64,000 nucleotides of DNA from Candidatus Bathyarchaeota archaeon (GTDB lineage: Archaea > Thermoproteota > Bathyarchaeia > TCS64): contig CAVYVF010000023.1 in NCBI GenBank assembly GCA_963771885.1, forward strand, positions 512,001-576,000. Direction: 5' to 3'. Positions 1-3,637 of the stretch are shown here, one piece after another. The stretch's first letter is position 1; every line of letters begins with the position of its first letter. The notes below the pieces were generated by a model. It saw only the letters and a program-made list of their open reading frames with translations. It was not told where the DNA came from and ran no database searches. The position numbers and the translations under genes are program-made.

Positions 1-243
1 AGATTTTTTTAAAAGCTTTTTCAGCCCCATGGGGCTCTTCATTTCCCTGCCGCGCACCGTGAGCACACCGATTCCGTATGCGCAATGAGGCTGGTGGATA
101 AGGGCAAGATAGTGATAGAGGTCGCATACTGAGCCTCACTGCTCAACTTACTGGTCATAGCCTTGATCACCCCATAATTTTTCTTCTAGTTGAGACGCCT
201 TTTCGCCAATCGTCAACTTTAACCGTCGCTGAATCATCATTTG

Positions 244-699
244 ATGGGACCAGGTTTGTCCGACGATGTTACTGCTAGGGTGCTCGAGGAGTACCTGAAG
301 GACTCCCGCCAGTCAATAAGGGAGGTGGCGAGGAAGGTGGGCGTCTCCTCGGGGACCGTCGCCAGCCGTCTCAAGGAGATGCAGGATGCGGGTGTCATAC
401 GCCGCTACTCCGCCATACTTGATTATGAAAAACTCGGCTACGAACTTACCGCCATAACTGAAGTGACCGTCTCCGATGGCAAGATGATAGAAGTCTGCGA
501 GACTGTTGCCAAGATGAGCCAGGCTACCGGCGTTTACAACGTCACCGGCGACGCCGATATAATGATCGTCGGCAAGTTCAAGAACAGGAGGGAACTCAGC
601 GACTTCACCAAGAAACTCCTCACAATCCCCCACGTGCAGAGGACGAAGACCCACCTCGTCCTCAACACGATGAAGGAAGACTTCAGCTTAATACCTTAG
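244..699 (+). CDS. Lrp/AsnC family transcriptional regulator
   Basis: N-terminal HTH (DSRQSIREVARKVGVSSGTVASRL) and RAM domain (VYNVTGDADI...RTKTHLVL). Confidence 0.93.
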   Translation: MGPGLSDDVTARVLEEYLKDSRQSIREVARKVGVSSGTVASRLKEMQDAGVIRRYSAILDYEKLGYELTAITEVTVSDGKMIEVCETVAKMSQATGVYNVTGDADIMIVGKFKNRRELSDFTKKLLTIPHVQRTKTHLVLNTMKEDFSLIP

Positions 700-703
700 T
701 CTT

Positions 704-950
704 GGGGTTAATGGGGCGCCGCGCCGTGAGGCGCGGCAGAGAGAGTGCCCAGGCGTCGTCGCCGCGGGTGACCCCGTGTCTTCTTCCCGCCTCCGTTACC
801 GGGGGCGGCCATGCATGCACCGGATTTCACCCGGGGAGTGCTCGTTCCTCGGCAAGCCAAAGCCAACCTTGGTCTTCGCGGCCCACTCCCCGCAGCTCTT
901 CGGTTTCGGGGTTTTTCACCGCTTTTCCCCTTACCCGACTCCACCTGAGC
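704..950 (-). ncRNA. Candidate stand-alone structured RNA, family unassigned
   Basis: Lies between convergent genes; several nested GC-rich stems; purine-rich loops on the minus strand; TATA-like TATTTATT on the minus strand at 979-972. Confidence 0.6.
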
Positions 951-1061
951 AATATTTCCACGGAACCGCCAAATAAATACCTAATCCGGCACACACGGGC
1001 GCTCAGATCCCTTACCACTAATGAAGGAAGCTTCTAGGTGCAGAAAACTGGAATATATGTT

Positions 1062-2120
1062 CTAGGGCTTAAGGTAGCCCTTGAGGTACTGCTTCATGGG
1101 CCTGCCTAGTGCGGCCTCGACGGGGTCGTATATCTCGGGGTACCTGTTGCCGTCGCCCACTTTTATCCGCTCCTTGGGCACGGTGACGACGTAGACGGTG
1201 TCGCCCTTCCTTAGAGCGGCGCTGGTGACGGGGTCGCCGTCGCCGTTGAATGTCGTCATGAGGTCGGGGAACGTCATTATGCGTTTCCCACCCTTCTCGA
1301 GGGTCATGTACTCATTAACGTAGCCAAGCTCCCACGTCTCCTTGCCCTTAACCGTCATGAAGCCGACGTCGAAGCCGCCGCGGGCCTCGTTAGTCATCTC
1401 CGTGATCTTGCCCTTCTCGAGGAGCTGGCCGCCGAGGAACTTTGCAGCAGCCTTGACGGCTGCCTCGCCCTTCTTCTCCTTTAGGTAGACGTTGCCGAGG
1501 TCTATCGCCTGCTGTATTGCACCAGGTGCGCCGTGCTCTAGACACCACTCAACGGGTATTGGGTCGCGCGCCATAGCGATGAGGGCCTTACAGTCCCCAG
1601 CCATAAAGCGTATCTGGTTACTCGTCCTCTGCAGGGTGCCCCAAGCTACCATTTCGGCTCCCTCCGTGGCGCCCGCCTTGACGGAATTGTACTCTATGCG
1701 GTGCATGCCCATGCTACCCATCATCGCGGTCGGGTGGGCGCGGCCGTCGCCGGGTATGTCGACGACCGGCAGCCCGAGCGCCGCGGCGGGTATCCAGCCT
1801 CCGAAGCTGTTCTGGCCCCCGTTCTCCGCGGCGATGACGCCATCGAACTCGACGCCCGCCTCCCAGAGCATCTGGACTGCGCGTATGAAGTGGCGAGACT
1901 TGGTCTCACCTTTCTGGGTCGGGGCGCCGAGAGCGGCGACGGTGATCACATTCCACTCGGGTGGCGTCTCCTCTGGGCTCCAAAGCTCGACTCCGCCGAG
2001 CTCCATCGCGAGCTTGCCCGAAGCGCGCCCCTCGTCTGGCCAACCTCCTCCGCCGCCTCCCAGTATGGTGCCGCCGATCGTGAGTGCCTCAACATCTTCA
2101 TATGTGATCTTTCTTGGCAA
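1062..2120 (-). CDS. DUF917 family protein
   Basis: GGTILGGGGGG, E-x-GG-x-N, D-x-x-GDGRAHP and NEY...TFPDL motifs typical of DUF917. Confidence 0.85.
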   Translation of the reverse strand: MPRKITYEDVEALTIGGTILGGGGGGWPDEGRASGKLAMELGGVELWSPEETPPEWNVITVAALGAPTQKGETKSRHFIRAVQMLWEAGVEFDGVIAAENGGQNSFGGWIPAAALGLPVVDIPGDGRAHPTAMMGSMGMHRIEYNSVKAGATEGAEMVAWGTLQRTSNQIRFMAGDCKALIAMARDPIPVEWCLEHGAPGAIQQAIDLGNVYLKEKKGEAAVKAAAKFLGGQLLEKGKITEMTNEARGGFDVGFMTVKGKETWELGYVNEYMTLEKGGKRIMTFPDLMTTFNGDGDPVTSAALRKGDTVYVVTVPKERIKVGDGNRYPEIYDPVEAALGRPMKQYLKGYLKP

Positions 2121-2203: not shown

Positions 2204-2488
2204 ATGGTCGGCACACGTAGGTACGTCGTCATTGATGACCGCGACAACGTCGCCACGGTCGTTGAGACGCTCAGGAAAGGTGAGGTCGTCGAGGTTGGCG
2301 GCGCCAGGCTCAGGCTGCTAAGGGACATCCCTGAAGGGCACAAGTTCGCGCTCGCCAAGATACCGAAGGGCGACTACGTCGTCAAGTACGGCGAGTGGAT
2401 TGGTAGAGCGACCGCAGACATAGCCGCAGGCGACCACGCACACGTCCAGAACGTCGAGGACATAGTCGACGAGGTGAGGAAGCTATGA
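2204..2488 (+). CDS. UxaA-family dehydratase/lyase small (SAF) subunit
   Basis: DNVAT, IPEGHKFAL, VVKYGEWIG, HAHVQN motifs. Confidence 0.9.
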   Translation: MVGTRRYVVIDDRDNVATVVETLRKGEVVEVGGARLRLLRDIPEGHKFALAKIPKGDYVVKYGEWIGRATADIAAGDHAHVQNVEDIVDEVRKL

Positions 2489-3637
2489 GAACCACATTCA
2501 AAGGCTATCGCCGTGCAGACGGGCGGGTAGGCGTCCGCAACTACGTTGCTGTGGTACCAACTGTCCTCTGTAGCGTCTCAGTCGCGAGAAGCATCGCCGA
2601 GGCGACGAAGACAAACGCCTTCCCACACGAGGGGGGATGTGGGCAGGTCGGCCCAGAAAAGGATCACACCCTACGGGTACTGCAGGGCGTGGTCAGCCAC
2701 CCCAACATCGGTGCTGTCCTCACCGTCGGGCTGAGCTGCGAGCAGATAGATGCCAAAAAACTCGCCGAGGCGGCAGGGGATAAGCCGACCCGCAATATCA
2801 GGATACATGACGCCGGCGGCAACATGAAGGCGGTTAAGAAGGGTATAGAACTCGTCAAGGAGCTCAAGACGGAGATATGCGGGCGCCAAAAGGACGCGGA
2901 TAGACGTCGCGGAGCTCACCATCGCCACACAGTGCGGGAGCAGCGACACCGGCTCAGGCATCGCCTCCAACCCTGCGGTAGGTGCCATGGCGGACAGGCA
3001 CATCGAGCATGGAGGCGCCGTAATCCTCGGGGAGACCGGTGGACTCTACGGCGCAGCAGGCCTCATGGCGAGGAGGGCCGCCACCAAGGAGATAGGAGAC
3101 GAGATAATCGCGATGACCGACAGGCTCGAGGAGTACTACAGGCGGATGGGTCGCAGCCTCCGTGAGGGTAACCCGACTCCAGGCAACATCGCAGGCGGCC
3201 TCACGACGCTAGTGGAGAAGAGTCTCGGCGGCGTCAGGAAGGGCGGTACAACCATGATACAGGGCGTCCTCGGCCCCGGCGAGAGGATAACGGGCAAGGG
3301 GCTCTGGGTGATGAACACTAGCCACGGCATCGGCAGCTGCGCCGCCGCTGACATGCTCGCTTCAGGGGCACAGCTACTCGCCTACACGACAGGCGGCGGA
3401 AACCCCATAGGTAACCCACTCGCCCCCGTCGTCAAGATCACAGCCACGAGGCGGACCATAGAACGCCTCGACGACATAATCGACTTCGACGCGAGCCCGG
3501 TCCTCCGAGGAGATGAGACAGTCAAGCAATGTGGCGACCGCCTCCTGAACTCCATAATAACATTCGCAAATGGGAGGAAGGTGCAGGCTGAGAAGACGCG
3601 CCACACAGCCTTCGCAATCGGCGACGTGACGCTATAA
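2485..3637 (+). CDS. UxaA-family (altronate dehydratase/SuyB-like) large subunit, frameshift near 2878
   Basis: GYRRADGRVGVRN, HEGGCGQ, GLSCE in the first frame; QCGSSD, GNPTPGNIAGGLTTLVEKSLG, YTTGGG in the second. Confidence 0.88.

Follow-up and report, generated by a model that had tools for sequence, protein, structure and literature searches.

To our knowledge, few structured archaeal RNA classes are known beyond rRNA, tRNA, RNase P, SRP and guide RNAs. 5S rRNA is laid out as a terminal helix, a three-way junction and two interrupted arms, and purine and c-di-GMP-I riboswitches use a three-way junction locked by a distal loop contact, a common aptamer layout. Y RNAs, which are found with Ro60, are small RNAs present in several copies, each with its ends paired and one domain variable, and CsrB and CsrC are reportedly protein-sequestering RNAs with many GGA loops. 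The raiA-motif RNA is described as having a closed conserved P1, a pseudoknot core and variable peripheral stems (PMC12968392). Here we compare with these systems a locus in a window of 64,000 nt, the whole stretch of DNA from a sediment-dwelling Candidatus Bathyarchaeota archaeon that was analyzed, and we conclude that it belongs to a family of noncoding RNAs that is almost certainly real and expressed.

An earlier note, made from the letters of this DNA alone, had proposed that the gap between two convergent genes encodes a structured RNA of ~250 nt, transcribed independently from the minus strand. The features of the locus are as follows.

241..699, plus strand: lrp, an Lrp/AsnC regulator gene and the convergent neighbor of the RNA, with no sign of a functional link
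718..737: 8-bp hairpin that is not part of the conserved unit, with 8.0 expected pairs on both strands
745..950, minus strand: ncRNA gene of ~206 nt, placed by homology boundaries, covariance-model scores, fold z and RNA contigs, its exact ends being predicted
G950, minus strand: predicted +1 of the ncRNA gene
972..979, minus strand: TATA-like box at -29..-22 relative to the predicted +1, read from the sequence and set against the AT peak of family promoters
1062..2120, minus strand: DUF917/S-Me-THD-like gene, the upstream neighbor of the RNA, with no sign of a functional link

In the homolog alignment, family conservation begins at 951-950 and stops at 745-744, where P1 closes, and the RNA is therefore ~206 nt rather than 250 nt long. 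A folded, noncoding minus-strand element starting at ~950 stands as proposed; its 3′ boundary does not. The fold z of 745-950 is -4.0 on the minus strand (0 of 200 shuffles as good) and -2.4 on the plus strand (3 of 200), and over the wider interval that had first been delimited (700-955) it is -2.0 for plus and -1.9 for minus. The hairpin 718-725/730-737 is real and has the 8 bp described, but it lies outside the conserved unit and is absent from other family members by homolog comparison; possibly it serves as a 3′ signal for lrp or forms a trailer to the window RNA. Elsewhere in the window, two overlapping frames at 2485-3637 together make up a galactarate/altronate dehydratase-like gene, whose interruption reflects a frameshift, an assembly error or a pseudogene.

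Independent transcription from the minus strand is supported by homologs that carry their own TATA box and a T-rich 3′ tract in unrelated gene contexts. The box at 979-972, suggested as a promoter, occupies the same place as in family promoters, where the AT peak lies at -28..-24 across 104 upstream regions, with A at -34 in 93/104 and T at -1 in 102/104. Most copies also have in common a dyad of the form TTK-N11-MAA just upstream of the BRE/TATA (T at -54 in 96/104, A at -39 in 90/104). Five or more of the six dyad positions are present in 86/102 family promoters, 1/41 tRNA promoters and 25/242 random TATA-like anchors; the window copy, with 2/6 positions, is without the dyad. On the 3′ side, a T-rich tract is found 8-11 nt after P1 in the family. 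For 105 copies, the flanking genes of one subtype bear no relation to those of another, convergent orientation is frequent and no downstream gene is consistent, and a cis riboswitch, which the earlier note had argued against, was rejected because same-strand downstream genes of related function are lacking among these copies. Near-identical dyad promoters also occur at G000:C5:10068 and C6:21643 of the window's genome, each before a leaderless 522-aa gene, and this pair is possibly a further regulon member or a duplicated piece of the assembly.

Twelve runs on record as RNA contain about a quarter of the words from 600-1100. The metatranscriptome check that had been proposed, for a ~250-nt transcript starting near 950, gave contigs inside the RNA unit for 4/4 RNA runs from four metatranscriptome studies, but all of them lie within 755-936, and since the runs were picked for containing the stretch and contigs lose low-depth parts, the coverage gap outside 755-936 is no proof of the ends. 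Nine of 15 RNA contigs match at 99% or better, and one RNA run has adapter ends at 755 and 928. The contigs speak for the presence of the stretch, not for its strand, ends or level, in libraries that may contain DNA, and are in keeping with a stable RNA.

The window stretch as a query matched 8 of 41 genomes, its own included, and a typical homolog matched 27 of 71. A covariance model (R1) built from 11 short members found one to six copies in 51 of 79 genomes of the order; by family, these are 50 of the 70 other genomes of the window's Bathyarchaeia family and 0 of the 8 outside it, in five genera. When a sample of the class was searched with 22 candidates scored per genome, R1 matched 24/35 genomes in the family and 0/114 of other families, and a second model (R2), with the same number scored per genome, was run on another sample of 150 genomes and gave no match beyond the family. 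Five family genomes from four other genera gave no match at E ≤ 1. A pattern scan of 185,579 species genomes returned 59 loci, 58 of them titled Bathyarchaeia or Bathyarchaeota. The 59th (L077) is on a bacterial-MAG contig, where the RNA and its flanks are closely like type C copies of Bathyarchaeia, and this contig is probably misbinned. At least 120 family loci occur in metagenome contigs, and viral contigs gave no match with two patterns.

Measured from +1 to the end of P1, members fall into type C (57 copies, 125-139 nt), type D (9 copies, 130 nt), type B (11 copies, 139-141 nt) and type A (25 copies, 164-206 nt). Types B, C and D are kept at syntenic loci across species, and type A copies lie at many unrelated loci. 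The window's genome keeps five related, diverged copies side by side. Among these, the window copy has the greatest length and divergence and the lowest score (44.9 and 54.5 bits in two covariance-model searches), and its kinship is with the long A forms. Only 1 of 40 other genomes yielded an ortholog of it, which occupies the same locus but is missing its first third and promoter; the (GC)n run found at the junction there may be an assembly scar. Because the ortholog is rare and lacks these parts, the window copy may be drifting. Short (GC)n runs were also seen at deletion or homology breakpoints in several genomes of the genus (L002:1715-1735; L055, L056, L057, L061, L355), as either assembly scars or a real deletion signature.

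A site of ~30 bp recurs in the variable regions of the genus (L045, L275, L301; 13 places in the window's genome), commonly with a spacing of 0.6-1.4 kb, a constant orientation and a start codon 25-40 nt further on. Type A copies are often found next to this site, and some type A RNA genes sit between two such sites as ~415-bp units. The site may be a portable promoter or a cassette recombination site. Window positions 921-952, at the 5′ end of the RNA, resemble its other strand (282 of 4.9 million positions score as high), and the other four copies in the genome score far lower; recombination at a site of this kind may have given rise to the window copy.

The family fold, supported by covariation, consists of a closing stem, a three-way junction, a 5-bp pseudoknot between a loop and an internal loop, and a near-invariant G·U/UUNG tip hairpin that caps P4. 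In 63 distinct short members 94.9% of cells are paired and 22/33 pairs have changed on both sides, against 33-40% paired in slid controls for this alignment; in 74 distinct metagenome rows the values are 93.7% and 20/33. As the alignments were fitted to the model, compensatory changes were also counted on a tree of 97 rows, where the 11 strongest column pairs all fall within the model, in P1, P2b, P3, P4a and P4c. Homologs with compensatory changes, for which a search among relatives had been advised, were thereby found. P1 is paired in 99% of cells, with changes on both sides at 7/10 pairs. The pseudoknot is paired in 97.4% of cells, with 3/5 pairs changed on both sides and 0/500 shuffles as high; among 164 rows, 148 have 5/5 pairs, 5 have fewer and 11 (mostly type D) were unparsed. 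On the tree it has few independent changes, with one compensatory branch each for two pairs. In the window copy, 922-918 and 882-878 differ in sequence from the other members and still match each other. At the tip, the G-C and C-G pairs are unchanged in 63/63 short members and 74/74 metagenome rows, and the G·U is kept in 61/63 and 74/74, respectively. Since the arms are of similar length, they probably lie side by side with the tip on top. Unpaired conserved purines gather at the junction, where the letters vary between subtypes. The helices of the window copy, all on the minus strand, are as follows.

951-942/755-746, minus strand: P1 closing stem, by helix calculation and family covariation
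938-935/903-900, minus strand: P2a, read from the sequence and alignment
930-927/911-908, minus strand: P2b, by alignment
926-912, minus strand: loop L2, by alignment
922-918/882-878, minus strand: 5-bp pseudoknot of an L2 strand with the internal-loop strand above P4a, by helix calculation and family alignment
896-892/765-761, minus strand: P3, by MFE and helix list, with compensatory branches on the tree
891-884/840-833, minus strand: P4a, by MFE and helix list, with compensatory branches on the tree
within 761..896, minus strand: second three-way junction, with P5, by MFE and helix list
855..864, minus strand: tip hairpin, in which G·U, G-C and C-G close a UUUG loop, near-invariant in the family and the proposed protein-binding site
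766..832, minus strand: P5 extension (P5a, P5b, P5c), confined to type A and long members
832-827/771-766, minus strand: P5a
808-800/795-787, minus strand: P5c

This arrangement departs from the nested architecture of eight helices first drawn for the locus. Two of those helices lie inside the RNA and agree with both ensemble pairs and the family structure, namely the stem 832-840/884-892 (P4a) and the hairpin 787-795/800-808 (P5c), but the rest are outside the unit or in conflict with covariation. The closing stem 705-716/927-936, the hairpin 752-763 and the stems 764-770/917-922 and 771-776/907-912 each have 0.0 expected pairs on the minus strand, and these four helices use strands that covariation gives to P1, P2, P3, P5 and the pseudoknot. 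The hairpin 857-872 is favored by energy (4.9 expected pairs), and the computed fold of the window copy prefers it over the tip, but it competes with the near-invariant tip at 864-855. The idea of paired T-loops was given up, because in the alignment the CCGAAAC segment is a variable internal-loop strand and GGUGAAA is a helix strand of P5a, in the P5 arm missing from the 125-141-nt members. A double T-loop of the RNase P S-domain/T-box kind was rejected likewise, with one segment varying freely and the other being the P5 helix strand, which short members do not have. Neither the pseudoknot nor the invariant tip had been noticed, nor that the RNA belongs to a multicopy family.

The RNA is uncatalogued: novelty against Rfam, raised as a check on the locus, was confirmed by the lack of a match. 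With Rfam 15 the best E for window 500-1200 was 2.7, far under the gathering score; 11 homolog loci gave none at E ≤ 1, and two short members searched alone gave a best E of 4.2 for one and none for the other. Literature searches turned up no description of the RNA, although one beyond their reach is possible. The claim that the RNA is neither SRP nor RNase P RNA was upheld, as each has a canonical gene elsewhere in the genome and no match at the locus: RNase P RNA (RF00373, with its P4 core and CR-I/CR-V) has its sole match at 184.9 bits, and archaeal SRP RNA (RF01857, with helix 6/8) its single match at 132.2 bits. 5S rRNA (RF00001) has one match elsewhere in the genome at E ≤ 1 and none on short members. 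A tRNA- or tmRNA-like mimic was rejected because host tRNA genes end in CCA and the family ends in A-C-Y-Y, with position 8 paired in P1. Likenesses to the tRNA-Leu acceptor stem, to the SAM-I, lysine, cobalamin and c-di-GMP-I junctions, and to telomerase P6.1, group II intron domain 5 and the hammerhead core were dropped, because the alignments lose the defining letters and Rfam gives no match.

A scan of the window's genome with the family promoter matrix found, after the family copies and the duplicated leaderless gene, a site at G000:C2:253000, which precedes a second RNA.

G000:C2:~252755-252945 (L343), minus strand: second closed-stem RNA of ~190 nt, a 5′ leader that shares its promoter type and tip hairpin with the family

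This leader has no Rfam match. Its gene is single-copy, is present in 65/79 genomes of the order and encodes a 112-aa protein with a zinc ribbon. A Myb-like identity is a weak lead, given by PF00249 in 16% of a single Atlas cluster. The model of the protein has a pLDDT of 73.9; the protein gave no significant family match, no PDB sequence match under E 0.4 and no fold match at E ≤ 0.001, the best being archaeal Rpp21 and GcrA at E 0.07. The interior of the leader is highly variable across genera, and a hairpin of G·U, G-C and G-C with a UNNG loop is kept, so that the leader tip is the family tip with its closing pair swapped to G-C. Most of its loops are UUUG, UUGG or UUAG, which are the loops of the family tip. 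The tip hairpin is present in 21/30 and 7/20 leaders (28/50), by a pattern defined after both RNAs were known. In the five family-bearing genera it occurs in 6/13, 16/18, 2/3, 1/1 and 0/1 leaders (25/36), the 6/13 being those of the window's own genus; it occurs in 0/11 in five genera where the family was not found and in 3/3 in three further genera without the family found, whose genomes are 64-79% complete. The co-distribution of tip and family may reflect one ancestral gain. As the pattern is post hoc and related genomes are non-independent, the shared hairpin is only a lead. A scan of the window's genome for the tip 10-mer gave ~100 occurrences, mostly chance matches in coding DNA.

A further feature is confined to long copies.

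810..817, minus strand: 8-nt self-complementary loop, a candidate homodimer (kissing) site, palindromic in 18/18 long copies

Sixteen of 16 long A copies carry an identical 8-nt self-complementary word in the P5 loop, and in the window copy (817-810) and its ortholog the palindrome is changed at two symmetric places and is still self-complementary; the count of 18 leaves out one type B row, a false inclusion. By calculation the word is mostly unpaired in the monomer and its self-duplex has -9.9 kcal/mol. Because an 8-nt palindrome cannot close a hairpin, we infer a dimer contact, but the palindrome may instead be a site that acts at the DNA level.

That the ends are closed, that no guide sequence is left free, that an exposed tip is invariant, that a leader shares its motif and that paralogs exist would all be explained by a protein-binding RNA. 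We therefore suggest, tentatively and at somewhat below an even chance, that the family is a trans-acting protein-binding RNA, a decoy or scaffold that is possibly dimeric. In the mechanism we propose, a rigid pseudoknotted body would present the tip to an RNA-binding protein that would also bind the leader of the Myb-like gene, and one candidate binder is the Myb-like/zinc-ribbon protein itself. By titrating or holding the binder, the one to six paralogs would tune a small circuit induced together with them, much as GlmY or CsrB do. The window copy, without the dyad, would supply a tip site outside dyad regulation, and long copies may dimerize through the 8-nt palindrome and carry two tip sites. 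The regulated promoter and terminator that a decoy calls for are found in the family, and the window copy has a TATA box without the dyad; counted against a decoy are the single tip per RNA, which makes a poor sponge, the exceptions in how the leader tip is spread over genera and, for the window copy, the computed preference for another hairpin. The full circuit, in which one activator induces both the family and the Myb-like/zinc-ribbon regulator, the RNAs titrate the tip binder and long forms, the window copy among them, dimerize, is doubtful, as is the claim that such an archaeal RNA-decoy circuit would have no known counterpart.

We considered whether the family might instead bind a small molecule, as an aptamer that acts in trans or gates read-through at the T-tract after P1. 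A three-way junction locked by a distal loop contact, conserved unpaired purines at that junction and a T-tract directly 3′ of P1 would all suit this explanation. However, no Rfam riboswitch matches, the genes downstream are unrelated and often convergent, as at the window, no alternative expression-platform pairing is conserved and the junction letters differ between subtypes, and we regard ligand binding as unlikely.

A role in translation, as a 5S-like RNA or tRNA-like mimic acting with the ribosome or an AlaX-type editing deacylase, is quite unlikely. It draws on size, closing helix and three-way layout, which recall 5S rRNA, and on gene order, since 32/51 RNA-bearing genomes have an AlaX-S-like gene 0.1-4.7 kb downstream of one copy and on the same strand (e.g., L122:2402-2875 and orthologs, with Pfam tRNA_SAD below cut-off). 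Differing genes are inserted between the copy and the AlaX-S-like gene. The linkage is weakened by the near-universal presence of the AlaX-like gene in the order, including genera without the RNA, by its being unlinked to the RNA in the one single-contig genome, and by 20 AlaX-like gene regions that were searched without filters and gave no RNA (best E 0.57); moreover, the window copy is not near such a gene. Nor does the RNA itself fit, as there is no 5S or tRNA match, canonical 5S is present, and tRNA genes encode CCA whereas the family ends in A-C-Y-Y, with A fourth in 2/102.

Of similarly low probability is a structural RNA that is abundant, assembles with itself rather than with one particular protein and has a role in stress or dormancy, like raiA-motif, ROOL, GOLLD or OLE RNAs. 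The closed P1, pseudoknot core and variable peripheral stems fit the raiA description (PMC12968392), contigs are present in metatranscriptomes and long copies have the self-complementary loop. Yet that palindrome is missing from most members, Rfam gives no match to raiA or the others, and a hairpin common to an mRNA leader would be left unexplained.

Type A, with its many unrelated loci, raises the question of whether the RNA multiplies within the genome as a selfish or mobile element or as a ribozyme. Some type A copies are flanked by ~30-bp sites repeated in direct orientation, at about -196 on one side and +220 on the other, with the two together at 3 type A loci, and the 5′ end of the window copy resembles the other strand of that site. 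Against this, types B, C and D are syntenic across species, the commonest neighbor clusters include no recurring transposase or reverse transcriptase, the RNA contigs have no joints, and there is no Rfam ribozyme match and no viral-contig match with two patterns. No terminal inverted repeats, target duplications or linked transposase were seen in flank alignments or the main neighbor clusters, and we consider a mobile element or ribozyme very unlikely. Finally, a base-pairing sRNA or modification guide is the least probable explanation and hardly credible, for although the RNAs have their own promoter and terminator and the paralogs could address different targets, there is no long unpaired variable stretch, the main loop is taken up by the pseudoknot, and no C/D or H/ACA match rises above noise.

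Whether or not the preferred reading of a protein-binding decoy or scaffold holds, the family adds a new fold that includes a tertiary contact and is maintained as several diverged copies within single genomes of an abundant uncultured lineage, and its stretch is present in soil and sediment metatranscriptomes. At 125-206 nt its members are small enough to make, probe and solve in vitro, and the hairpin and promoter shared with the leader, together with the palindrome, turn the question of function into binding and dimer tests.

Compared with known systems, the family is like archaeal RNase P RNA (RF00373) and SRP RNA (RF01857) in being made up of independently transcribed, stable, closed-end archaeal RNAs, and unlike them in that their canonical genes lie elsewhere in the same genome and their models fail at the window locus. 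It shares with 5S rRNA a minimal size of ~130 nt, the terminal helix and the three-way junction, but its arms are joined by a pseudoknot, it consists of diverged paralogs with their own regulated promoters, and no 5S model matches. Y RNAs differ in that no Ro60 (TROVE) gene was found in the 92%-complete genome (0 matches; the control matched in 2/14 genomes) and in having no Rfam match here, and a Y RNA was rejected. As in the raiA-motif RNA, the members are stand-alone structured ncRNAs whose subtypes differ in peripheral stems (PMC12968392). Unlike it, the family is archaeal and of narrow range, with one pseudoknot rather than two, one to six paralogs per genome and no Rfam match. The logic we propose is closest to that of the GlmY decoy sRNA of E. 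coli, which is described as a separate regulated RNA that bears the structural site of another RNA and sequesters a protein (PMC7073468). There is no sequence or fold match to GlmY or to CsrB and CsrC, and the family is archaeal, with one tip in a pseudoknotted body. What is new is the family and its fold; the decoy logic, if it holds, would be a new form of one already known from bacteria.
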